Made by a program: the position numbers and the translations under genes
The notes under the pieces: generated by a model
The model's input: the letters and a program-made list of their open reading frames with translations, nothing else
What the model was told of the DNA's origin: nothing
The model's database searches: none
Source of the DNA: Patescibacteria group bacterium
Lineage (GTDB): Bacteria > Patescibacteriota > Minisyncoccia > Phycocordibacterales > JACOZG01
Direction of reading: 5' to 3'
Assembly (NCBI GenBank): GCA_038064935.1
Contig: JBBTRZ010000010.1
Span: 1 to 37,750 of the forward strand
Length of the DNA: 37,750 nucleotides
Shown here: positions 5,631 through 24,085 of the stretch, piece after piece
Numbering within the stretch: position 1 is the first letter of the stretch
How the letters are laid out: every line of letters starts with the position of its first letter

Positions 5631-6494
5631 TTATCGAGATTTGAACCCGCGTTGGAAGTCGGCGTAAGCCATCTCCCGCTTCCCTTCGGGTTTAACCTTT
5701 TCGATCACTAGTTGATTGTCGGTGAGGTAGGCCGCGGTAATAATGACTCGCACTTTTCTGCCGTGGCGTTCGACGAAAAAATAAGTGCCGACGGAGCCAT
5801 AATGGGCGAGGAATTTACGGTAATTAATTATCGGGTTCTCGGCTAAGTCAATCAAGCCATCTTCTTTTTTGATTTTCTTGGTGTAAGTGGCGCGATCATG
5901 ATCTTGGGGCGCGGATTTAATTCCCCCCTCGACGAAACGCACCGCGGTGTCGAGAAATAATTTAGCGCCTAGTTTAGCTAACTGGTCCCTAAGTTCAATA
6001 AAGTTTTGCGTTTTTAGTTTTACGCTTTCCATTTTTAGGCTCGGGCCGTGGTCGAGTTTCTCGTCAAGGAGCATGAGGGTGACGCCAGTTTCGGTGATGC
6101 CGTCTAAGATGGCGCTTTGAATTGGCGTTGGGCCCCGGTAGGCGGGCAAGAGCGAGGGATGAAGATTAAGCGTGCCGTGTTTAGGTAGGTCAAGAACGGC
6201 CGCGGGAATAAGTTTGCCGTAAGAAGCGACGAGAAATAACTTATAGGGGATAGCTTCTAGCTTATAGGGGATAGTTTTTAGATTATCGGGTTGAATGCAG
6301 GGGGTGCCATTATTTTCGGCCCAGAGTTTGACGGGTGGGGGAGTGAGTTGGAGATATTTGCCTCGTGGTTTATCGGGGATCGTGACAATAAGTTCCGGTC
6401 GACAATCAGCTTTTTTTAGTTCATCAAGGACCATGACGGCAAATTCGTCTGTCCCGAAAAAAGCGAAGTTGGGAAAGTTAATCAAATTAACCAT
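5631..6494 (-). CDS. fmt: Methionyl-tRNA formyltransferase
   Basis: FFGT..FA, NLHPSLLP.YRGP.PIQ, GVT.M..DE.LD.GP; follows def. Confidence 0.93.
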   Translation of the reverse strand: MVNLINFPNFAFFGTDEFAVMVLDELKKADCRPELIVTIPDKPRGKYLQLTPPPVKLWAENNGTPCIQPDNLKTIPYKLEAIPYKLFLVASYGKLIPAAVLDLPKHGTLNLHPSLLPAYRGPTPIQSAILDGITETGVTLMLLDEKLDHGPSLKMESVKLKTQNFIELRDQLAKLGAKLFLDTAVRFVEGGIKSAPQDHDRATYTKKIKKEDGLIDLAENPIINYRKFLAHYGSVGTYFFVERHGRKVRVIITAAYLTDNQLVIEKVKPEGKREMAYADFQRGFKSR

Positions 6495-6984
6495 GGACGA
6501 CATTGCGAGCATGATCAATGAAGAGAACTCCGTCGAGATGCTCGATCTCGTGCTGGAAGACTTGAGCCATTAACCCTGAGGCGTGGTGAATTAATTTCTT
6601 ACCCGTCGCGTCGAAGGCCGCGACACTGACTCGTTCATAGCGTCGAGTGACACCATAATAATCCTTGACGCTCAAACAGCCCTCGGTGCATTCGATTTGT
6701 CGGCGCGAGCGGCGAGTGATGATCGGGTTCACGAAGACGAGATCATGAGACCACGACTGTGTCAGATCGCGTTCGGGGAAGGCGCGCCGCCCGACGATAA
6801 ACACTCGCCACGCCTCGCCAATCTGCGGCGCGGCGAGAGCGACGCCATCAGGCGAGGCCGAGAGGGTGGCTGACATCTTGGCAATCAGTTGGTCAAGCCA
6901 CGGTGACGGCAGATCACTGATTGGCACCGCTTGAGCAAGTTGGCGGAGTACGGGATCGGGATTTTGTCTAACACGTAGGATCAT
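6487..6984 (-). CDS. def: Peptide deformylase
   Basis: GVALAAPQIG, EGCLS, QHEIEHLDG. Confidence 0.95.
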   Translation of the reverse strand: MILRVRQNPDPVLRQLAQAVPISDLPSPWLDQLIAKMSATLSASPDGVALAAPQIGEAWRVFIVGRRAFPERDLTQSWSHDLVFVNPIITRRSRRQIECTEGCLSVKDYYGVTRRYERVSVAAFDATGKKLIHHASGLMAQVFQHEIEHLDGVLFIDHARNVVHG

Positions 6985-6990
6985 AATAAT

Positions 6991-8886
6991 TTAGAGCAAA
7001 CTGTCCGGGTCGACATCAATGACGAAAGCTGGTGGCAGAGATTTCAATTGCTCGAGGAGAGCGGGTTCCGGCCAATCATTCGGCCGGCGTTTGATGAGGA
7101 GATGCAGGCGGTATTCGCCGGAGATGACCGGGATAAAAGCGGGGAAAACTTCCGGCTCGTAGCTTGCCAGTTGATCGGCCAAAGTTTTCATTGCGAGCCG
7201 CACTTGGGCTCGTTCACCGGAGAGAGCAACTTTGATAAAGGTTTGGAAGGGCGGATAGCCGTATTGTTTGCGTTCGGCAATTTCCGTTCGATAGAAATCG
7301 AGGAGATTTCCCTTGAGCGCCTGATCGAAGAGACGCACCCGGACATTCCTAGTTTGAATAATAAATTGTTTGGTCGTGAGCGCGCGGAGCCGGATTAGAA
7401 GCCCGAAGACTCGCTCATTGATACGATAGTCGGGAAGAGCGAAGAGCGAGTCCAGCGCGACGATGGCTACATTCTCAATCCGTTCCTTGAGATAATAGAG
7501 GGCGAGTTCGGTGCCGAGAAGGACACTACCGGGGGTCGAGAGGAAGCGTTTAATCGTGGCCCCCGGCACAGAGCCGCCGCGGACGCTGTCACTGTCGAGT
7601 TTGAAGAGGCGAAGTCGCGGAAAATGCTCTTCGAGTTCGCGGGCCACTCGATCAATGCCGATACCCAATTCCAAAAGCCGCCAGCCGCCGCAGTGGCGGC
7701 ACTTCTCGGCGGCACTCCGCCTCGCCCCACACCGATGACAGATAAAAATTGTTTCCGCGCCGTCTTCTTCCATCCCCGCAGGGTGAAGCACTGTCGGCGC
7801 TTCACAATTATCGCACTCGACGGTCGCGCCACAATCTTGACAGATGACGACTGGAGCCAAACCGCGACGGTGAGTGAAGAGAAAAATTTTCTCATTCCGT
7901 TTCTCCACTTCGGCAATAGTAATAAGGAGTTCATCGCTCAACACTCGGAACTCGGTCGTCGGCATCTTCTTGACGGCAATCAAGGTCTGGGTGGCATTGG
8001 AAGCGGCATGGTGCTTCAGGGTAGCGAGCGGCTCGATTTCACCTTGATCAGCCCGATAAGCCGTCTCGGTTCGAAGCACCGCATCACCTAAAACAAAAGT
8101 CGCTTCCGACGCTTCCGCCAGATACTCGGCGAACCGACGATGATCGAGGAAGGGGCGAGCTGAAGATTTATAAGTTTGAGTGTTTTCTCGATCAACGATA
8201 ATCGCCCGAATGTCGGTTCGCGGCAGGGATAAGAAGATCGGGGTGGCGATAATAAGGATCGGGTGAGTGAGATCGAGCGCGCGTTGCCAAGCGGTCGTGA
8301 GTTCACGGGTCGAGAGTTGGTGATGTAAAGCAATAGTGTATTCACTGATACCGCGCTCGAGTGACGCGACCGCACGCGTCACATCAATGACCGTTGGTAG
8401 ACACATGAAGACCGATCCGTGTTTGGCGAATTCGGCTCGGATCAAACTTTTATAATACGCTTGTCGTTCATCGTCGGGTTCTTGGAGGACAAATTTTTCG
8501 CCGGCCGCGCGCGGTTCGTCTTTGGATTCCTTGGCCACTCGGAGGGTGACTTTCGCCTCGAGAATTTTCGTCGGGACCAAACTCTTGAGTGTCAGACCAA
8601 GCGTTGCCGCGGCATAGTCGGCCGTCTGACGCGCGGCGACCATGAAAGAGGTAGTGAAGAATCGTTCGTGCTTGACGCGGATAATTTTCTTGAGTGGGTA
8701 ATCGGCCTTCTTGACTGCCAGCTTAAGTTCGTCCGCGGCTCGGACTTGGGTAACCAGAGCCGAAATCGTCCGACCCCGCAACGGGACCGAGACAATCGCT
8801 CCGGGTCCGACCGCCTCGCCGGTGAAATAAGTCAATTCTTCACGACTAATTCCCCTCGCGATGGGGATAACACTGACGATTTGCAT
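6991..8886 (-). CDS. priA: Primosomal protein N' (PriA-like, helicase motifs degenerate)
   Basis: N-terminal 3'-DNA-binding region, RRG plus four CxxC zinc pairs, IIQT, YPPF; no intact Walker A. Confidence 0.85.
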   Translation of the reverse strand: MQIVSVIPIARGISREELTYFTGEAVGPGAIVSVPLRGRTISALVTQVRAADELKLAVKKADYPLKKIIRVKHERFFTTSFMVAARQTADYAAATLGLTLKSLVPTKILEAKVTLRVAKESKDEPRAAGEKFVLQEPDDERQAYYKSLIRAEFAKHGSVFMCLPTVIDVTRAVASLERGISEYTIALHHQLSTRELTTAWQRALDLTHPILIIATPIFLSLPRTDIRAIIVDRENTQTYKSSARPFLDHRRFAEYLAEASEATFVLGDAVLRTETAYRADQGEIEPLATLKHHAASNATQTLIAVKKMPTTEFRVLSDELLITIAEVEKRNEKIFLFTHRRGLAPVVICQDCGATVECDNCEAPTVLHPAGMEEDGAETIFICHRCGARRSAAEKCRHCGGWRLLELGIGIDRVARELEEHFPRLRLFKLDSDSVRGGSVPGATIKRFLSTPGSVLLGTELALYYLKERIENVAIVALDSLFALPDYRINERVFGLLIRLRALTTKQFIIQTRNVRVRLFDQALKGNLLDFYRTEIAERKQYGYPPFQTFIKVALSGERAQVRLAMKTLADQLASYEPEVFPAFIPVISGEYRLHLLIKRRPNDWPEPALLEQLKSLPPAFVIDVDPDSLL

Positions 8887-16969: not shown

Positions 16970-17523
16970 ATGAAATTTAAGATGAGGGGGGGTTCACACT
17001 TGTCGAACTTCTCGTTGTCATTGCCATTATTTCACTCCTGTCGAGTATTGTTTTGGCGTCACTTCAAGGAGCTCGTTCCAAAGCCCGCGACAGTAAACGA
17101 GTGCAGGATTTGATCCAACTCCGCACCGCCCTTGAATTATATAAGGCCGATATTGGAAGATATCCCGGTCCTTATGTTGATCCTTCGGAAACTGATTCCA
17201 CAGCCATGAGAGATTGCTGGGATTGCACACCATCAACACCATCGCGTGATCCTAGCAGACTTAGTGCTTTAGATAATTATCTAAATCCTCGGCCGTCAGA
17301 TCCACAAACTCCACCGGGGGGATATCCAGGCAATCAAAGGGGTTACTGGTATAAATCAAACTGCAATGATTATAAAATAATAATTAATGATACTGCAGAA
17401 AATTTGAACAACATACCTTCAACAATGCACGACCCAACTTCATCTTTACGAATAGGAATTTGGTCGTCGGACGAATCCTCATCATGGGGTATCGTTTCAT
17501 CAATCATTTCGTATTGTCCTTAA
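16970..17523 (+). pseudogene. Type IV pilin/GspG-like protein, frameshifted at a G7 tract in the leader
   Basis: GFTLVELLVVIAIISLLSSIVLASL..AR.KARD..R..D; ATGs at 16970/16982 are out of frame with GFTL; in-frame TAA at 16978. Confidence 0.8.
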
Positions 17524-17659: not shown

Positions 17660-17684
17660 AAAAAGGGACACGCGATGTGTCCCT
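17660..17684 (-). terminator. Intrinsic terminator of the orphan cassette
   Basis: AGGGACAC-5 nt-GTGTCCCT followed by a U run on the minus strand. Confidence 0.75.
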
Positions 17685-17750: not shown

Positions 17751-18209
17751 TTAACTGGCGAGAAGAGATTCGAGATACTCGAGTTCTCGCTTGATCTCAT
17801 CTGGCGGCATTCGTCTTATTCGATAGAACTCTGCGAGCTCATCGGGATCGTTGGGATTAAATCCAGTTTCCTTAACCCGAACATCGCGCTCTAAAATAAT
17901 TATTTCATCTACCGACAGAGCGGAAAGGAGAAAGCGCTCAGCTTCGGTAACCCCCTCCATTGAAATCGAATAATACACATCATAACGCCCAGGATAGCCC
18001 GGCCTGATTTTCCCCACTTGATGACCAAGATTATCCGCCTTGGTGACACCAAGATTGATAAGTTTCTGTAGAGCCCAATCACTAACTAATCCCTCATTAT
18101 ACAAGCCATTAATGTGGTCTCTCCAAAATGTGGCGGATTGCCTCTGTTCGGCAATTTGATCCCTAATTTTCTTGTCTCCAGAACCATGTTGCCGGTTTTT
18201 CTTGGACAT
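17751..18209 (-). CDS. Hypothetical protein (orphan cassette)
   Basis: 152-aa ORF with AAGGA SD, own promoter (TTGACT-17-TTTAAT) and terminator. Confidence 0.7.
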   Translation of the reverse strand: MSKKNRQHGSGDKKIRDQIAEQRQSATFWRDHINGLYNEGLVSDWALQKLINLGVTKADNLGHQVGKIRPGYPGRYDVYYSISMEGVTEAERFLLSALSVDEIIILERDVRVKETGFNPNDPDELAEFYRIRRMPPDEIKRELEYLESLLAS

Positions 18210-18447
18210 GACTCATCCTTTCAAAATTGAATGTCAAAAGAACTTATCCGTTTCCAGCTTTCGCCTTCATCGGCTAGGACACACATCCTAGATTCAGTTC
18301 CATTAAATCACTATCAATGTGAAAAGTCAAGCGTTTAGGACTCGTTGAAATACCCTTATTTTGATTGCCAGAATTTACTAAAAGCTACCTGCCCGACGAC
18401 TTGCTTCGATTGGGCAAGGCGAGTAAGCTGAAGGCGGTGGAAATTGA

Positions 18448-18519
18448 GGCCCTATCGTCTAACGGTTAGGACATCGCCTTCTCAAGGCGGCAATCCGGGT
18501 TCGATTCCCGGTGGGGTCA
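18448..18519 (+). tRNA. tRNA-Glu (anticodon CTC), CCA not encoded
   Basis: Cloverleaf: GGCCCTA/TGGGGTC acceptor, TCGCC-TTCTCAA-GGCGG anticodon arm, CCGGG-TTCGATT-CCCGG T arm. Confidence 0.96.
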
Positions 18520-18692
18520 AAAAGCGTTAAGAATAAAGTGAACTGCTTCACTTTTTTAGCTTTTTGAAGCCGCAGGCCTATTTCGCCAGCAGGCGAAAAG
18601 CCGAGGCGAGGTCGACAAGTACTTACATTTTTTACGAATTTATGAAGTAAAAAATTTAGTAACTTGTGACCATAATATGTTAAACTCGAGTC

Positions 18693-19793
18693 ATGGCTGA
18701 TTCTTTTTCTTTTATCACCCTCGCAATTGTTGCGGTTGTTGGAATTGGCGTGGGAATTGTCGTCACGCGACGGCTGATACGGAGTAAAGGGGAGGGGAAT
18801 GATGGGATGGGCAATCAGAGTTTGCTCCTAATCCAAAATCAGTTGAATGAGTTGGCGCGGACCAATACTGAACTCTCGCGCGTGCTCGACGCGCGGCTAG
18901 TGGAATCTAATCGCACCGTCCATCAATCACTCGAAAAGCAATTTGGGGAAACCAACAAAATTGTGCGCGATGTGACCGAGCGCTTGACCAAACTCGACGA
19001 GACGAATAAACAAGTGGTCTCTTTCGCTGACCAACTCCAGTCGCTCCAGGATATTCTCAAGAATCCGAAACAGCGCGGGATTTTGGGTGAGTATTATCTC
19101 GAAACCTTGTTAAAAAATGTTCTCCCGACCGGCAGTTATCAGATGCAATACCCATTCGCCGACGGCACGATTGTGGATGCGGTGGTGTTCGTCAAAGATA
19201 AAATTATTCCGATTGATTCTAAGTTTTCGCTGGATAATTATAATCGGTTAGCAGAAGAAAAAAATCCAGCCGAGCGAGAGCGGTTAGAAAAACTGTTTAA
19301 GGCCGATTTAAAAAATAGAATTGACGAGACGGCAAAATATGTGAAGCCCACCGAGCGGACGATGGATTTTGCCTTCATGTTTATCCCGCACGAAGCGATT
19401 TATTACGATTTGCTCGTGGCCCAAGTCGGCACGGTTAAAATCAATACCCGCGACCTGATCGAGTACGCTTTCAAAGAAAAACATGTTATCATTGTCTCGC
19501 CGACTTCCTTCCTCGCTTATCTCCAGACGGTTCTGCAGGGATTGAAAGCGCTTCAAATTGAAGAATCGGCTAAAGAAATCCGAGCGCGAGTGGAAGATTT
19601 GGGACGACATCTAGGTTCCTACGAGGCCTATATGACGAAATTGGGCAATGCTCTCGGGACGAGCGTCGGTCATTACAACGCCGCTTACCGTGAACTCAAA
19701 AAAGTGGATAAAGATGTGACGCGGATTGTCGGCGCGAGTCCGGGCATTGAAGCGATCACGATCGAGAAACCGGATGCCGAAGACGGAGATTAA
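18693..19793 (+). CDS. rmuC: DNA recombination protein RmuC
   Basis: N-terminal TM, coiled coil, K.RG..GE..LE, IPIDSKF, DFAFMFIP.E, SPT. Confidence 0.93.
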   Translation: MADSFSFITLAIVAVVGIGVGIVVTRRLIRSKGEGNDGMGNQSLLLIQNQLNELARTNTELSRVLDARLVESNRTVHQSLEKQFGETNKIVRDVTERLTKLDETNKQVVSFADQLQSLQDILKNPKQRGILGEYYLETLLKNVLPTGSYQMQYPFADGTIVDAVVFVKDKIIPIDSKFSLDNYNRLAEEKNPAERERLEKLFKADLKNRIDETAKYVKPTERTMDFAFMFIPHEAIYYDLLVAQVGTVKINTRDLIEYAFKEKHVIIVSPTSFLAYLQTVLQGLKALQIEESAKEIRARVEDLGRHLGSYEAYMTKLGNALGTSVGHYNAAYRELKKVDKDVTRIVGASPGIEAITIEKPDAEDGD

Positions 19794-19807
19794 CTATAAA
19801 TTAAAAA

Positions 19808-19924
19808 ATGAAAAATTACGACAAGACAGGGAAGCAAGATGGTCGGCCGGCGTACCGCACGCCGTCGTGGTTCCGCTCCCAAAAAACACAATTCAAGAAA
19901 AGTTTCCGCAAACCGAGTTTATAA
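19808..19924 (+). CDS. Possible small basic protein (38 aa)
   Basis: ATG 14 nt after the rmuC stop; stop coincides with the start of the terminator hairpin. Confidence 0.3.
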   Translation: MKNYDKTGKQDGRPAYRTPSWFRSQKTQFKKSFRKPSL

Positions 19925-19950
19925 AAAAACCGCCATCAGGAGACAGCGGT
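19923..19950 (-). terminator. Intrinsic terminator
   Basis: ACCGC...GCGGT stem followed by a U run on the minus strand. Confidence 0.6.
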
Positions 19951-19973
19951 AGTTGGGGAATCAAGCCCTTCGG

Positions 19974-20516
19974 TTAGCAAATACATTGGCGGGGGAATAT
20001 GTCTATGCCTTCTTGAACCAATCGCAACATCGCTACGCCGATAGAAACATTGAATTCTTGCGCCACGGGGCCAGCTTTTAGAAGACAAGTTGGTAAAACC
20101 AAACTCAAGTATCTGCGAGGAAGTCTACTTTCACCAACATGATCCACCAACATTCGCTTTTCGTGGGCTAGAGTGAGTTTGAATTCGACAAAATCTGCAT
20201 CATCCATAGTTTCGGCTACAGCCAAAGCGTCGTCAGCAAAAGGACTTAATTCTTTCAAACCTTGACGCAAATCCTCCAGAGTCTGTACCTTGCTAAGAAA
20301 ATGAGCATAATCTTCTTCTTCGTATTCTACCCCGTTGCCATCCCGGTTATCCCCAAAAGAATAGATGTCTCCTGACCATCTCCCTGTCACACGGCAAATG
20401 GTGGGGAGAGAAAATTCCCCGAGAGGGTAACTTATATTATTTAGTTTTTTCTCTATTTCTTTTTCCCGTAGCTCTAATTTTTTGGGACCAATTCTTAGTT
20501 TTCTTGGTTGGTTCAT
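19974..20516 (-). CDS. Hypothetical protein (orphan cassette)
   Basis: 180-aa ORF, strong SD AAGGAGAGGT, promoter-like TTGCTT-17-TAGTGT. Confidence 0.7.
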   Translation of the reverse strand: MNQPRKLRIGPKKLELREKEIEKKLNNISYPLGEFSLPTICRVTGRWSGDIYSFGDNRDGNGVEYEEEDYAHFLSKVQTLEDLRQGLKELSPFADDALAVAETMDDADFVEFKLTLAHEKRMLVDHVGESRLPRRYLSLVLPTCLLKAGPVAQEFNVSIGVAMLRLVQEGIDIFPRQCIC

Positions 20517-20584
20517 CCACCTCTCCTTTCAAAGATCAAATGGTTACAATAACACTACCTAACTTCTTTTTGAAAAGCAATGTT

Positions 20585-21661
20585 TTAAAGCAACTTTCGT
20601 TCCGCTACTTTGAGCGCCACGGCGCGTGGAGAATCGCCAGTTTTTTTCGACTCGGTGAGAACGGCGGTGACGCTTTTGGTAATTTTTTGTTTGACCAACT
20701 CAAACATTTTTTCGGCCGTATAACCGCGATGTTCGGCGTAGGAAGAGATGACTCCACCGGCGTTCGCCACAATGTCGGGAATAATGAGAACGCCGCGCTT
20801 GATTAGTTTAGTTTCGGCTTCGGGAGTAACAGCAATATTCGCGCCTTCGACAATTACCGACGCGTTGACTTCATCGGTGTTCGTTGCATTAATCACATCC
20901 GGCAAAGCGGCGGGAATAAGCACATCAACCGGCAAAGTGAAAATCTGGTCATTACTTAATTTTTCACTATTCAAAAAGTTAATCACCGATCCCTTCGCCT
21001 TTTTCACCCCCAGCAATTCTTTCCACGGCAGACCATTTTGATTGTAAATGGTACCCTTCGAATCGGAGACGGCCACAATTTTCAAACCGGCCTCGGTGAG
21101 AAATCGCGCGGCGAAAACTCCCACATTGCCGAAGCCTTCAACCGCCACTCGCGCGCCAGGGAGTGGCAAACCGCGGTGGGTGAGCGCAAGTTTGACCGCC
21201 TCGGCGACGCCGTAACCGGTGGAACCTAATTCATGAGGCAGGCCGCCTAAGCGCGCGGGTTTACCGGTCGCGGCTTGACGGTCGTTCACCGCCCGAACGA
21301 AAATGGCCATCTCTTTTTCAGTCATATTGATGTCCGGACCGGCGATGTAGAGCTTAGGGAGGAAGGGTTTGAGTTCGCGGGCAAACCATTCAACTACTTT
21401 TTTCTTCGTCACGGCATCTGATGTTTTAGGATCGAAAACGATGCCGGCTTTAGCTCCACCGAAGGGAATGCCGGCGAGAGCATTCTTATAAGTCATCGCC
21501 CGGGCTAATCGCGCCACTTCTTCTTCACTCACGGTCGGCGTCATACGAATTCCGCCTTTGCCGGGTCCGAGTTTAGTATTGTCAATTACTAAAATACCGT
21601 GAACACCAAATTCATGATTATAAACCTTCACCACATATCGCGGCCCAATGTTGTCGGTCAT
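20585..21661 (-). CDS. Glu/Leu/Phe/Val dehydrogenase
   Basis: GPGKGGIR, MTYKNA, GGAKAG, TGYGV, VEGFGNVG, EGAN, PD.VANAGGV. Confidence 0.93.
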   Translation of the reverse strand: MTDNIGPRYVVKVYNHEFGVHGILVIDNTKLGPGKGGIRMTPTVSEEEVARLARAMTYKNALAGIPFGGAKAGIVFDPKTSDAVTKKKVVEWFARELKPFLPKLYIAGPDINMTEKEMAIFVRAVNDRQAATGKPARLGGLPHELGSTGYGVAEAVKLALTHRGLPLPGARVAVEGFGNVGVFAARFLTEAGLKIVAVSDSKGTIYNQNGLPWKELLGVKKAKGSVINFLNSEKLSNDQIFTLPVDVLIPAALPDVINATNTDEVNASVIVEGANIAVTPEAETKLIKRGVLIIPDIVANAGGVISSYAEHRGYTAEKMFELVKQKITKSVTAVLTESKKTGDSPRAVALKVAERKLL

Positions 21662-21719
21662 AAAAATAACTCTAACTTTTCTAAATCATTTTGGCAAGAA
21701 AAAAGCCACGCCTAATTTA

Positions 21720-21757
21720 ATTGTCAAGTGGGCGGGGAGGGGATTGTAGGGTAGGAT
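21720..21757 (+). repeat. Direct repeat copy 1 (promoter segment upstream of the PIN TA module)
   Basis: 32/38 identical to 22441-22478. Confidence 0.8.
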
Positions 21758-21764
21758 GGGGGGC

Positions 21765-21956
21765 ATGCTTACTACTATCGAAAAACCTATTTTGCAAGCG
21801 CGACGGGAGATTGCCACTGTTTTGCGTCGTTATCGATTGGGGTGGGAAGAAGTTGCTCCCGATCGTGATTATTTGATTTGGAAAAAATTAAAGCCCTTGG
21901 CTAAAAGGGTGCGCAAGGAATTATTCCGCCAGTCGTATCCGTCTTTGGTTAAATGA
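21765..21956 (+). CDS. Putative antitoxin
   Basis: Small basic ORF translationally coupled (ATGA) to the PIN gene. Confidence 0.6.
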   Translation: MLTTIEKPILQARREIATVLRRYRLGWEEVAPDRDYLIWKKLKPLAKRVRKELFRQSYPSLVK

Positions 21957-22399
21957 TTGAGTCGTCGCCGGTCAAAGTTTTTCTCGATTCAAGTGTTATC
22001 ATTGCCGCCACTCTTTCTTCAACGGGCGGCTCTTTTCGTTTATGTCGCGAATGTCGAGACCACCATTTAATCGCTTACATTAATCAGTATGTTCAAGATG
22101 AAGTGCGCGAGGCGTTTGCCCGTAAGTATGTCTCTACTATCGATAAAATAAATTTACTGTTGGAATGGAGTAAAATTAATATTATCCCTAATCCCAAACC
22201 AGATTTTGTTAGAAAGATTGGGAATTTAATAAATTTAGAAGATGCTCCAATATTGGCTGGCGCATTAGGTAGCGAAGTTGATTTTTTGGTTACCCTGGAT
22301 CGCAAGGATTTCATGACACCAAAATTAAAGAAGTTTTCTCTTCCAACCATTATCACCACGCCTCAAGATTTTTTTCAACAACATTGGAATGGAAAATAA
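21953..22399 (+). CDS. PIN-domain (VapC-like) toxin
   Basis: VFLDSSVIIAA, E, DAPILAGA, LVTLD.KDF. Confidence 0.88.
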   Translation: MIESSPVKVFLDSSVIIAATLSSTGGSFRLCRECRDHHLIAYINQYVQDEVREAFARKYVSTIDKINLLLEWSKINIIPNPKPDFVRKIGNLINLEDAPILAGALGSEVDFLVTLDRKDFMTPKLKKFSLPTIITTPQDFFQQHWNGK

Positions 22400-22440
22400 A
22401 AAAAAGCCGCCGGCACGAATCGCCGACATGAGCAGCTTGC

Positions 22441-22478
22441 ATTGTCAAGTGGGCGGGAGCGGGAGAATAGGGTAGGAT
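22441..22478 (+). repeat. Direct repeat copy 2 (rplU promoter segment)
   Basis: Ends in TAGGAT 7 nt before the rplU ATG. Confidence 0.8.
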
Positions 22479-22485
22479 TAAGAAC

Positions 22486-22833
22486 ATGAAATTTGCGGTG
22501 ATTAAAACGGGAGGGAAACAATATAAAGTCGCCGATGGCGATGTTTTGACGATCGAGAAATTGCTTGCTTCGACGAAGCCACAGCGAGGCGAGCCCGCTT
22601 TGCCCGCTGTTGGAGAAGAAGTGACTTTCAAAGAAGTCCTTTTGACAGACGATGGCGAGAAGACAATTTTAGGCACTCCGACCATCACTGGCGTCGCGGT
22701 CACGGCTGAAGTGATCGCTGTTGGGCGTGCTAAGAAAGTGACCGTCATTAAATATAAACCTAAAGTCCGCTACCGCGTGAAGCGCGGCCACCGCCAGCCG
22801 TATATGAAGGTTAAGATAACCTCGATTAAATAA
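22486..22833 (+). CDS. rplU: 50S ribosomal protein L21 with a 10-aa insertion
   Basis: FAVIKTGGKQYKV..GD...IEKL, KYKPK..Y..K.GHRQ. Confidence 0.96.
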   Translation: MKFAVIKTGGKQYKVADGDVLTIEKLLASTKPQRGEPALPAVGEEVTFKEVLLTDDGEKTILGTPTITGVAVTAEVIAVGRAKKVTVIKYKPKVRYRVKRGHRQPYMKVKITSIK

Positions 22834-22869
22834 AAAAGACTCGAGCGTGCTTTCGCACGATCGAGTCTT
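22832..22869. terminator. Terminator between rplU and the orphan operon
   Basis: AAGACTCGA-G-CGTGC-TTTC-GCACG-A-TCGAGTCTT with an A run (U run on the minus strand). Confidence 0.8.
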
Positions 22870-22920
22870 GATGAGGTTTCAGTACGAAGTCGTCCTTCCG
22901 AACTCTGTATTGCTTTCCTG

Positions 22921-23406
22921 CTAGATCGTTGCATCCGAGTAACGCACACACTCCACAGCATCGTCCTTATCTTGCAAAAATGCTTGGAATTTCTCGTAGT
23001 CATGGACTACCAAGGTTACAACAGCGCAACCCTTGGTACCGTTGTCCAAGTATCTCACATTGACCTGACGGATAAAAAGAACTTTTTCCTCCGCATCAAC
23101 CATCTCCCGGAGCTTGGTGAAAACTGCCCGAGCTCGCGGTATACGCAAGTGACGACACAAGTCTTTGAATACTGTTTCCACAAGATCTTGGACTATGTCA
23201 AAGTCTGTGAGTTTGTCCGAATGGACCGCCTGATGGAGTTCACGGAGGTACTCCGCGGTAAATTCATCTCGGAAGATACCGCGGTCAATCTCTCCGCGCA
23301 ACTCTATCAACATCTTGATCCCGTCTGCCGTCAGTTCCGTATCGCGGATGAGAAAAGCCAAGACGCCCCAGAATTGAAGCAACTTCTCAATCTCAATCTT
23401 CTTCAT
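22921..23406 (-). CDS. Hypothetical protein (orphan cassette)
   Basis: ATG preceded by AAGGAG SD; alternative in-frame ATG at 23439. Confidence 0.7.
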   Translation of the reverse strand: MKKIEIEKLLQFWGVLAFLIRDTELTADGIKMLIELRGEIDRGIFRDEFTAEYLRELHQAVHSDKLTDFDIVQDLVETVFKDLCRHLRIPRARAVFTKLREMVDAEEKVLFIRQVNVRYLDNGTKGCAVVTLVVHDYEKFQAFLQDKDDAVECVRYSDATI

Positions 23407-23418
23407 TACAAACTCCTT

Positions 23419-23475
23419 TGGCGTTAAGGTTATCGCCATACCTAAGCTGTTTTAAGACGATTGCTTAAACGTCTT
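23419..23475 (-). ncRNA. Tandem H-type pseudoknot leader, copy 1
   Basis: 46/57 identical to 23914-23970; 8 of 11 differences are compensatory. Confidence 0.7.
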
Positions 23476-23583
23476 TGGTTTAAAAGAACTTCCGATTCAT
23501 CCTTTTGGAATCATCAGTCGAGATACACATCTCGATTCGGAGAGAGTTTTAATGGTTAACTCTCGAACCCAGTGGCGATACCA

Positions 23584-23901
23584 CTATTCAACCTCCTCCA
23601 CCTTTAGGCCGATCACTTTGCCGATAGTTTCCAGGGCATTTTTACCCTGGTGGTTCGGCAGGCCGTTTGGCAGGAAGATCCAACCCCCAAGGACAGATAC
23701 TAGGTGTCCAAGCCCCTCACTGTTCAGACGATGTGTAATCTGTTTAACCCTTGATTCACAAGTCTCACAGAAACAGCACATGATCTGACAAGCGGTAAAT
23801 TGGGCACTGACGAGAACCTGTCTCGGCCTATTCCAACCTTCCACCTTGACCTTAATGACGTGGGCGTCGTTGTCATTTCCGATACGAAGGTCTGCAAGCA
23901 T
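23584..23901 (-). CDS. Hypothetical Cys-rich protein (orphan cassette)
   Basis: CQIMCCFCETC cluster; AAAGAG SD-like; alternative in-frame ATG at 23934. Confidence 0.65.
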   Translation of the reverse strand: MLADLRIGNDNDAHVIKVKVEGWNRPRQVLVSAQFTACQIMCCFCETCESRVKQITHRLNSEGLGHLVSVLGGWIFLPNGLPNHQGKNALETIGKVIGLKVEEVE

Positions 23902-23913
23902 GGGAACTCTTTC

Positions 23914-23970
23914 TGGCGTTAAGGTTATCGCCATACCTGTCCTGTTTTGAAACGAGTGGACAAACGTTTG
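23914..23970 (-). ncRNA. Tandem H-type pseudoknot leader, copy 2
   Basis: Covarying copy of 23419-23475. Confidence 0.7.
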
Positions 23971-24022
23971 CTGTTACTGCCAACGCGACAATTACAGCCA
24001 AAATCAAAAAACTACCTGTTCC

Positions 24023-24053
24023 TAGCTTAGCATAAGTGATGGCTATTTGTCAA
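24023..24053 (-). promoter_or_regulatory. Promoter of the orphan operon
   Basis: TTGACA-18 nt-TAAGCT with a TG extension. Confidence 0.6.
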
Positions 24054-24085
24054 TAGCGGAAAAAAGGACTCAAAACAAGGATATT

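Follow-up and report, generated by a model that had tools for sequence, protein, structure and literature searches.

Stem-loops at the 5' end are known to stabilise bacterial mRNAs, as in the ompA, ermC and aprE leaders. In prophages and bacteria, clusters of hammerhead ribozymes have been found flanking a single gene or a short block of genes, where they have been proposed to cut long transcripts into single-gene mRNAs, and for three such arrangements native fragments of ~2 kb were cleaved in vitro (Perreault et al. 2011, PMC3088659). In its sections on core variants the same paper reports that (i) a natural hammerhead with a U15.1-A16.1 pair self-cleaves at a low but detectable level, below that of typical hammerheads, (ii) U10.1-U11.1 occurs naturally and is the 10.1-11.1 mismatch best tolerated for activity, and (iii) a viroid variant with the change U4C, cited there, remains infectious. 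Here we describe two hammerhead-derived elements, designated copy A and copy B, on the minus strand of a 37,750-nucleotide (nt) stretch of DNA from a Patescibacteria group bacterium (the window; contig JBBTRZ010000010.1 of assembly GCA_038064935.1). We put at about 0.78 the probability that both come from a family of type III hammerheads, with copy B as a slow cutter between two cistrons and copy A as a retained leader that no longer cleaves. Type III hammerheads and gene-flanking hammerhead clusters are known already; specific to this case are the variant state of copy B, the fusion of a copy A without stem III to a promoter-like site, and the covariation of core position N4 with position 15.3 of stem III.

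The two elements had been singled out in an initial annotation, made from the sequence alone, as a hammerhead-core-like motif shared by two distant leaders. Re-reading of the minus strand gave the same letters for both elements. In the case of copy A these letters occupy 18297-18247 (51 nt), so that the span given for it was right except for its end, 18245, which was off by 2 nt; copy B starts at 23542 or 23541. A MAFFT alignment of 18234-18300 with 23480-23545 comprised 68 columns, 40 of them invariant, with a mean column identity of 79%, and both copies were indeed found to continue into the same 3' tail, AAGTTCTTTT. A two-hairpin structure of copies A and B pairs 28 of 28 cells, with changes on both sides in 6 of 14 pairs, including 4 of the 7 pairs of the first hairpin, for which covariation had been claimed, and 2 of the 3 pairs compared in stem II. 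This value was reached by 13 of 500 shuffles, while sliding the partner by 1 to 3 columns left 15-46% of the cells paired.

The core changes described for the two elements were all recovered: copy A has the U4C core CCGAUGA, copy B has an inverted 15.1-16.1 pair (U15.1-A16.1), a stem II opened by a U.U mismatch (U10.1.U11.1) and a full type III topology with stems I/II/III of 7/4/5 base pairs (bp). A point absent from the earlier description is that stem III is wholly missing from copy A (parsed length of zero, with the 15.1-16.1 pair classed as "other").

BLASTN-short of both copies against their own genome returned nothing besides themselves, and the search for further copies therefore needed a covariance model. 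A first model (R1), for which these two copies were the sole input, identified a third copy in the same genome (contig C17, 49269-49337; E 1.9e-8) and matched 16 of 61 genomes, i.e., the genome of the window and 15 of 60 relatives. The likeness of the two copies thus exceeds chance. The matches often form same-strand clusters, with six copies within 3.1 kb in one relative (G014:C3). In most of the aligned relatives CUGUC comes first, followed by stem I (7 bp, closed by a GUGU loop), CUGAUGAG, stem II (4 bp) and CGAAACAG. The Rfam hammerhead model RF00008 gave 18 rows at E≤1 in 20 loci of the relatives, two of which overlap so that one copy is counted twice; the best row, at 48.5 bits, equals the gathering score. 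Since R1, derived from copies A and B alone, retrieves canonical members, the two copies are homologous to copies that meet the hammerhead consensus. Across 102 copies from 58 sources, 97.7% of the cells pair in the three-stem structure, with both-side changes in 14 of 15 pairs; none of 500 shuffles reached this value, and slid versions paired 23-44% of the cells. The underlying alignment leans towards the structure, having been fitted to the model.

Judged by sequence and covariation, copies A and B are diverged members of a type III hammerhead family located before small orphan genes. The suggestion of a variant or decayed ribozyme in cassette leaders is therefore strengthened in its ribozyme part, by homology to a family that covaries and otherwise consists of canonical type III hammerheads, while copy A itself is very probably non-cleaving.

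The distribution of the family was analyzed with a later family model, R2. In an order-level sample 40 of 151 genomes matched R2 at E≤1e-3, and in a phylum-level sample 14 of 151 matched at E≤1e-5, the genome of the window being included in both counts. A pattern scan of named genome records found at least 127 stretches, and R2 gave 56 matches among the 80 loci listed. Among these listed matches the record titles are mostly Patescibacteria group, Paceibacterota, Parcubacteria and Saccharibacteria, with a few other labels; the Parcubacteria titles include Kaiser-, Adler-, Vogel-, Colwell-, Uhr- and Nomurabacteria. A literature search covering journals open without subscription found no paper joining the hammerhead with the candidate phyla radiation, titles and abstract beginnings gave no relevant paper joining it with Patescibacteria, and among the matches listed none joins it with Saccharibacteria, Parcubacteria or TM7 as taxa.

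An open reading frame (ORF) of at least 50 amino acids (aa) starts no more than 260 nt downstream in 30 of the 35 copies examined, and many of these ORFs begin 17-45 nt past the end of the model, behind an AAGGA or GGAG motif. Only two homologous pairs occur among the 30 downstream proteins. The Pfam cut-off was reached by 3 of 28 proteins of the relatives (PemK/MazF, Ro60 with TROVE plus vWA, and DnaJ), and the cargo is therefore diverse and mostly orphan.

Copy A scored 55.8 bits with R2 (E 5.5e-16, filters off), in a model that has copy A among its training rows. Its 15.1 position is an A that faces another A, leaving no U16.1; N17 is U18292 if stem I is taken as 7 bp, and not G. Stem I is preceded by ACUGAAU, for which in-register pairing with the former 3' strand of stem III, ACGG, is impossible. 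The change U4C is no sign of decay by itself, because scanning metagenomes for CCGAUGA returned 72 stretches (L215-L286) that represent 55 distinct copies, of which 53 keep a stem III of at least 3 bp; the RF00008 consensus has U at position 4.

A tRNA gene lies upstream of copy A in divergent orientation, so the copy A unit needs a promoter of its own. A promoter-like site was read just upstream of the copy, which had been missed by a consensus promoter scan because its second hexamer lacks the A at position 2. Stem I starts 10 nt past this hexamer, placing the predicted transcription start ~3-4 nt before stem I. A genome of another genus of the same taxonomic family (G017) carries a copy of the same subtype that likewise lacks a partner for stem III, and this copy is preceded, at the matching position, by the same CTTGACTTTT followed by N-TGC-TAATCT. 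The arrangement TTGACT-N14-TGn-hexamer is thus common to copy A and the G017 copy.

Two features, the lack of a 5' strand of stem III and the promoter-like hexamers ~10 nt upstream, make copy A most likely a non-cleaving relic, retained as a two-hairpin-plus-tail leader, and the recurrence of the same promoter-plus-relic arrangement in another genus argues for retention. Without that strand, cleavage of copy A is, on structural modelling, very probably impossible: when forced, its hammerhead fold lies 12.7 kcal/mol above the two-hairpin fold (99th percentile of 142 copies, with a family median of -0.65 kcal/mol).

The gene served by copy A, ORF152 (protein P0001), has no Pfam or PHROGs family, and a search for near-length homologues among 5.8 billion proteins found only P0001 itself. 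Homology with genomes of the same genus ends at 18364, at the edge of the copy A cassette, which is therefore strain-specific on that side. At this same point the cassette adjoins a conserved tRNA block, and a promoter-like site of the tRNA gene, TTGAAA-18-CAGAAT (18345-18374, plus strand), is conserved in same-genus genomes.

Copy B scored 80.4 bits with R2 and is likewise among the training rows. The inversion of its 15.1-16.1 pair is rare: in set A5, which was derived by model with no selection on position 4, the 16.1-15.1 pair is U-A in 98 copies, A-U in one (copy B), of another kind in one (copy A) and gapped in two, and among 142 parsed copies the U15.1-A16.1 state is present only in copy B and in one other (L119). 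The U.U mismatch at 10.1-11.1 defines a subtype that recurs in at least eight copies of the family alignment. Set against its closest subtype, CUGAUA...GAAAUCAG, copy B gives the impression of having lost the A15.1-U16.1 pair on both sides.

The surroundings of copy B form a strain-specific insertion between the recR stop codon and the gene at 22353-22748. It is missing from all five same-genus genomes compared, in which the flanks lie 3-24 bp apart. By its promoter-like hexamers at one end and terminator-like hairpin at the other, neither of which was listed by the consensus scan, the insertion looks like a self-contained unit; copy B would be its inter-cistronic hammerhead, 38 nt past the stop codon of the upstream ORF116.

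A common leader of ~70 nt, designated leader X, precedes ORF116 (~23935-24010), ORF161 and three hammerhead-led cassettes of a relative (G018). Before ORF116 it follows a promoter-like site, and before ORF161 and the three G018 cassettes it follows a hammerhead and its tail. The occurrence of leader X behind either element therefore fits a reading in which both devices serve to create a 5' end. The leader X alignment implies that the true start codons lie downstream of those listed mechanically: the start of ORF116 is later than the mechanical one, and ORF161 was listed mechanically as 172 aa starting at 23439 (P0002). ORF116 and ORF161 have no Pfam or PHROGs family; the near-length homologue search returned one 68%-identical database protein for ORF161, and G018 encodes a homologue of 33% identity, itself preceded by a hammerhead. 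ORF152 and ORF161 gave no usable Atlas match.

Copy B is plausibly a slow ribozyme, because U15.1-A16.1 and U10.1-U11.1 have both been published as weakly cleaving natural variants, and its hammerhead fold lies only 1.3 kcal/mol above the alternative fold, within the family range. It is probably a slow or weak cutter between ORF116 and ORF161.

The minimum-energy folds of copies A and B consist of two adjacent hairpins, the second of which is closed by pairing of C3-N4-G5 with C15.2-N15.3-G15.4. The C(C/U)G...CGG pairing noted in the initial annotation is thus real, and it is this alternative helix, between C3-N4-G5 and the 3' strand of stem III, that was perceived there as "K-turn-like". The two sides of the helix change together. 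Within the A5 copies whose positions 15.1-15.4 read A(C/U)NG, those with C4 have at 15.3 G in seven cases and A or C in none, and those with U4 have G in one, A in 63 and C in one (Fisher test of G versus not-G, p = 5e-9, which overstates the evidence because related copies are not independent). For the C4 metagenome copies of the same class G15.3 was found in 20 of 26, and in the pooled copies in 37 of 58 with C4 versus 22 of 131 with U4. When the 3' cleavage product was folded, C3-N4-G5 paired with the 3' strand of stem III in the minimum-energy structure of 103 of 142 copies. The co-variation between positions 4 and 15.3 suggests that an alternative two-hairpin fold is selected in this ribozyme family.

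A cut-then-refold model can be proposed on this basis. During synthesis of the multi-gene transcript, canonical members would cut directly after N17, and the first base of stem I would thereby become the 5' end of the downstream mRNA. With the short 5' strand of stem III gone after the cut, C3-N4-G5 would pair with the freed 3' strand (15.2-15.4), and the mRNA 5' end would become two adjacent hairpins followed by the conserved tail (AAGUUCUUUGAA). Such refolding would disfavour re-ligation and give a structured 5' end. In copy A the 5' end would be made by transcription initiation and not by cleavage. Refolding, the use of the promoter-like sites and any effect on mRNA stability or translation are predictions of this model.

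More tentatively, and with the odds rather against it, the selected product may be the refolded two-hairpin-plus-tail 5' end itself, cleavage being only one route to it. Three observations point in this direction: N4 co-varies with 15.3, which would let C3-N4-G5 capture the 3' strand of stem III after the cut; the sequence of stem III itself stays within two forms, CUGU/ACAG and CCGU/ACGG; and the promoter-supplied copies (copy A and the G017 copy) lost the cutting geometry and kept the hairpins, core and tail.

If true, this would be a ribozyme that cuts once and then switches into a stable leader, and a documented exaptation of a ribozyme into a non-catalytic mRNA leader. The link between positions 4 and 15.3 makes the model concrete and testable. 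A natural comparison is offered by three members of the family in one genome: the copy on contig C17, which is close to consensus, the weakened copy B between two cistrons, and copy A, which is fused to a promoter-like site, lacks stem III and is otherwise retained, and whose form has a counterpart in another genus. Whole subtypes of the family (C4, U.U, and A/C.A at 10.1-11.1) are seen to be missed by the Rfam hammerhead model. Should the model of cutting and refolding fail, two leaders of orphan genes would still be annotated as hammerhead derivatives.

Several points weigh against the joint reading of copies A and B or against the model built on it. That members of the family cleave is something we infer from their sequences. 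The Rfam hammerhead models gave no row for copies A or B at the gathering threshold or at E≤10; the rows obtained for copy A were snoR09 and mir-9412 only, at chance level. Copy B combines two weakening changes and may be dead rather than slow. The promoter-like calls for copy A and for the insertion are resemblances found by eye, none of them present in the consensus scan. The fold energies given for copies A and B are nearest-neighbour values, in which tertiary contacts play no part.

As regards the alternative helix, the N4-15.3 figures ignore shared ancestry. Moreover, 27 of the 53 C4 metagenome copies have other stem III sequences with which the helix is unformable in this register, and there are exceptions in both directions, namely two C4 copies with A15.3 (ACAG) and one copy (L131) with CCGU/ACGG and U4. 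RNase J is able to attack 5'-OH ends, as in the decay of glmS mRNA; this lineage encodes RNase J, and a protective effect of cleavage is therefore not a given. Finally, a pairing partner for the conserved tail is not supported by the modelled duplexes, either upstream or downstream.

In the minimum-energy fold of the copy A leader, the tail masks the Shine-Dalgarno site. As a rule for the family, pairing of the tail with this site was rejected (61 copies, mean z -0.24 versus shuffled tails). Upstream pairing of the tail showed a weak shift (mean z of -0.63); of the 61 copies, 12 fell below -1.5, and some of the pairings reach 9-12 bp. These 12 copies have an 8-12-bp complement of the tail 8-90 nt upstream of the ribozyme, the tail being AAGAUCUUUGAA or AAGUUCUUUGAA; examples are L069:2508-2571, L050:2232-2297 and L037:5269-5338, the last on contig C17 of the genome of the window. 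One form of the tail, that with GATC, includes the palindrome AAGATCTT.

The presence of RNases was also analyzed. In the assembly of the genome of the window (640 kb, 94% complete), models for RNase J, RNase Y, RNase E/G and RtcB gave no match, and RNase III was found. Of 61 relatives, 60 have RNase J and 57 have RNase Y, and the blanks are therefore most likely assembly gaps. The idea that the ribozymes replace missing RNases was rejected, RNase J and RNase Y being near-universal in the relatives.

Of the competing explanations, the one that survives best, although we consider it unlikely, is that both copies are dead relics whose resemblance and apparent covariation reflect descent from two once-active hammerhead subtypes. 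Copy A belongs to the AGGC-GAAA-GCCA / CCGAUGA / ACGG subtype and copy B to the UUCC-GGAU subtype, and because the subtypes differ, the compensatory differences between A and B date from divergence within the family rather than from divergence between these two loci. The relic explanation also accommodates the failure of both copies to match RF00008 and the position of both orphan cargo genes in strain-specific DNA. It is harder to reconcile with copy B, in which 16 of 16 stem pairs are intact and the remaining core is consensus, with the retention of the tail in both copies, and with the persistence in another genus of a stem-III-less form that has the same promoter-like site and intact hairpins and core, since neutral decay should have eroded the hairpins and core of the G017 copy. 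We prefer a retained leader for copy A and a weak cutter for copy B.

That both copies are fully active, copy A by means of an unconventional stem III, is very improbable. Two such stems can be drawn, CUG (18295-18297) with CGG (18248-18250) around an AA bulge, or GGAAC (18297-18301) with GUUCU of the tail (duplex -7.5 kcal/mol), and U4C is viable in a viroid, according to the viroid work cited in PMC3088659. Both pairings, however, leave A15.1 without U16.1, a partner kept in 98 of 100 A5 copies, and introduce a loop (2x1) or a bulge (6 nt) next to the core; the z-score of the second duplex (-1.2) is indistinguishable from that of shuffled tails, and a transcript beginning at the predicted start would lack most of the 5' strand.

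Least of all can the elements be regarded as a K-turn-like or other protein-binding site with an incidental likeness to the hammerhead, as the initial annotation had alternatively offered: the two-hairpin fold does contain tandem G.A pairs flanked by helices, and the conserved single-stranded tail is a possible protein site, but the tandem pairs are the G8.A13 and A9.G12 of the hammerhead, the predicted internal loops are symmetric (5x5 in copy A, 3x3 in copy B) with no 3-nt bulge, the L7Ae family (PF01248) has no match in the 94%-complete assembly, where a gap is possible, the relatives are canonical hammerheads recognised by RF00008, and covariation extends to all three stems, of which a K-turn model does not need stem III. 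An integron attC reading, considered against the core-site consensus only, was also rejected; the tail departs from that consensus, and the fold comprises two adjacent hairpins and not one long bulged hairpin.

The coordinates of both elements and of the features around them are collected in Table 1. A search of the window for further decayed copies, with R2 and filters off, gave nothing convincing beyond A and B; the next-best match (15.6 bits, 23715-23791, plus strand) has no stem I.

Table 1. Features of the window associated with copies A and B (all positions refer to the window, except for the row naming locus L033)
Feature	Position	Strand	Basis
Copy A, hammerhead-derived leader without stem III	18234..18300	-	sequence, R2 score, parse
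Copy A, stem I with GUGU loop	18274-18291	-	
Copy A, core CCGAUGA (U4C)	18267-18273	-	
Copy A, stem II hairpin AGGC-GAAA-GCUG	18255-18266	-	
Copy A, G12A13A14	18252-18254	-	
Copy A, former stem III 3' strand ACGG	18248-18251	-	
Copy A, conserved tail AAGUUCUUUUGA	18234-18245	-	
Promoter-like site of copy A: TTGACT (18325-18330), 14 nt, TGA, TTTAAT (18302-18307)	18302..18330	-	read by eye
Orphan ORF152 served by copy A, 152 aa (P0001), with Shine-Dalgarno-like AAAGGA before the ATG	17751..18209	-	
Terminator-like hairpin downstream of ORF152, T runs on both strands	17664..17684	both	scan list
tRNA gene	18448-18519	+	only Rfam row at gathering scores
Copy B, hammerhead with full type III topology and a variant core	23480..23545	-	sequence and parse
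Copy B, stem III 5' strand UCCGA	23537-23541	-	
Copy B, N17 = A (not G)	23536	-	predicted cut between 23536 and 23535
Copy B, stem I, 7 bp, GUGU loop	23518-23535	-	
Copy B, core CUGAUGA	23511-23517	-	
Copy B, stem II UUCC-AAAA-GGAU, 4 pairs including U10.1.U11.1	23499-23510	-	
Copy B, G12-A13-A14 = GAA	23496-23498	-	
Copy B, stem III 3' strand UCGGA (U15.1-A16.1), 5 bp	23491-23495	-	
Copy B, tail	23480-23490	-	
Strain-specific insertion of ~1,285 bp: promoter-like site, leader X, ORF116, copy B, leader X, ORF161, terminator-like hairpin	22799..24083		
Promoter-like site heading the insertion: TTGACA (24048-24053), 15 nt, TGC, TAAGCT (24024-24029)	24024..24053	-	by eye
ORF116, upstream ORF of the unit, 116 aa as listed mechanically	23584..23934	-	
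Leader X from copy B to the ORF161 start codon: hairpin AGACG...CGUCU, AAAACAGCUUAGGUAUGGCG...CGCC, GGAG, ATG at 23406	23407..23479	-	alignment A7
Leader X modules in locus L033	about 5873-5975, 6646-6750, 7100-7200		
Orphan ORF161, 161 aa from the aligned ATG and in database form P0003	22921..23406	-	leader X alignment
Terminator-like hairpin AGACUCGA.CGUGC-GAAA-GCACG.UCGAGUCU, then U run, closing the insertion	~22829..22869	-	by eye

Two other places in the window were noted. A 156-aa ORF at 17053-17523 (plus strand) has a weak type II secretion/pilin-like N-terminus (T2SSG, below the cut-off), and the first ~130 bases of the ORF find matches at many sites in genomes of the same genus, which is what a conserved pilin leader would give. 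A PIN-domain ORF (PIN_3; 21953-22399, plus strand) converges on the 131-aa ORF at 22353-22748 (minus strand), with a 3' overlap of 47 bases.

Compared with the RF00008 model (clan CL00010), the family has the same three-way junction with an open stem III and the same CUGAUGA...GAA core, and the relatives share its cleavage-site context (GUC, GUA, GUU). The differences in the window lie in the absence of stem III and the presence of C4 in copy A, and in U15.1-A16.1 and U10.1.U11.1 in copy B; in the family as a whole, moreover, the stem I loop is almost invariant (GAUGUGUAUC) and the 3' tail is conserved, two features outside the Rfam consensus. The likeness to 5'-terminal stem-loops such as those of ompA, ermC and aprE consists in a hairpin at, or a few nt from, the 5' end: the cleaved product would begin at stem I exactly, and the predicted transcript of copy A a few nt before it. 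Unlike in those leaders, the structure here is derived from a ribozyme.

The clustered hammerheads of prophages and bacteria, as portrayed in the relevant sections of PMC3088659, resemble the present family in that several ribozymes lie on one strand between changing and often hypothetical genes. They differ in that the host here belongs to the Patescibacteria, that PHROGs gave no match for the five window proteins scanned, and that copy A is fused to a promoter-like site and has lost its cutting geometry. Of the core variants treated there, copy B carries U15.1-A16.1 and U10.1-U11.1 together and copy A carries U4C, a change that in the present family is frequent (55 distinct metagenome copies) and tied to G15.3.

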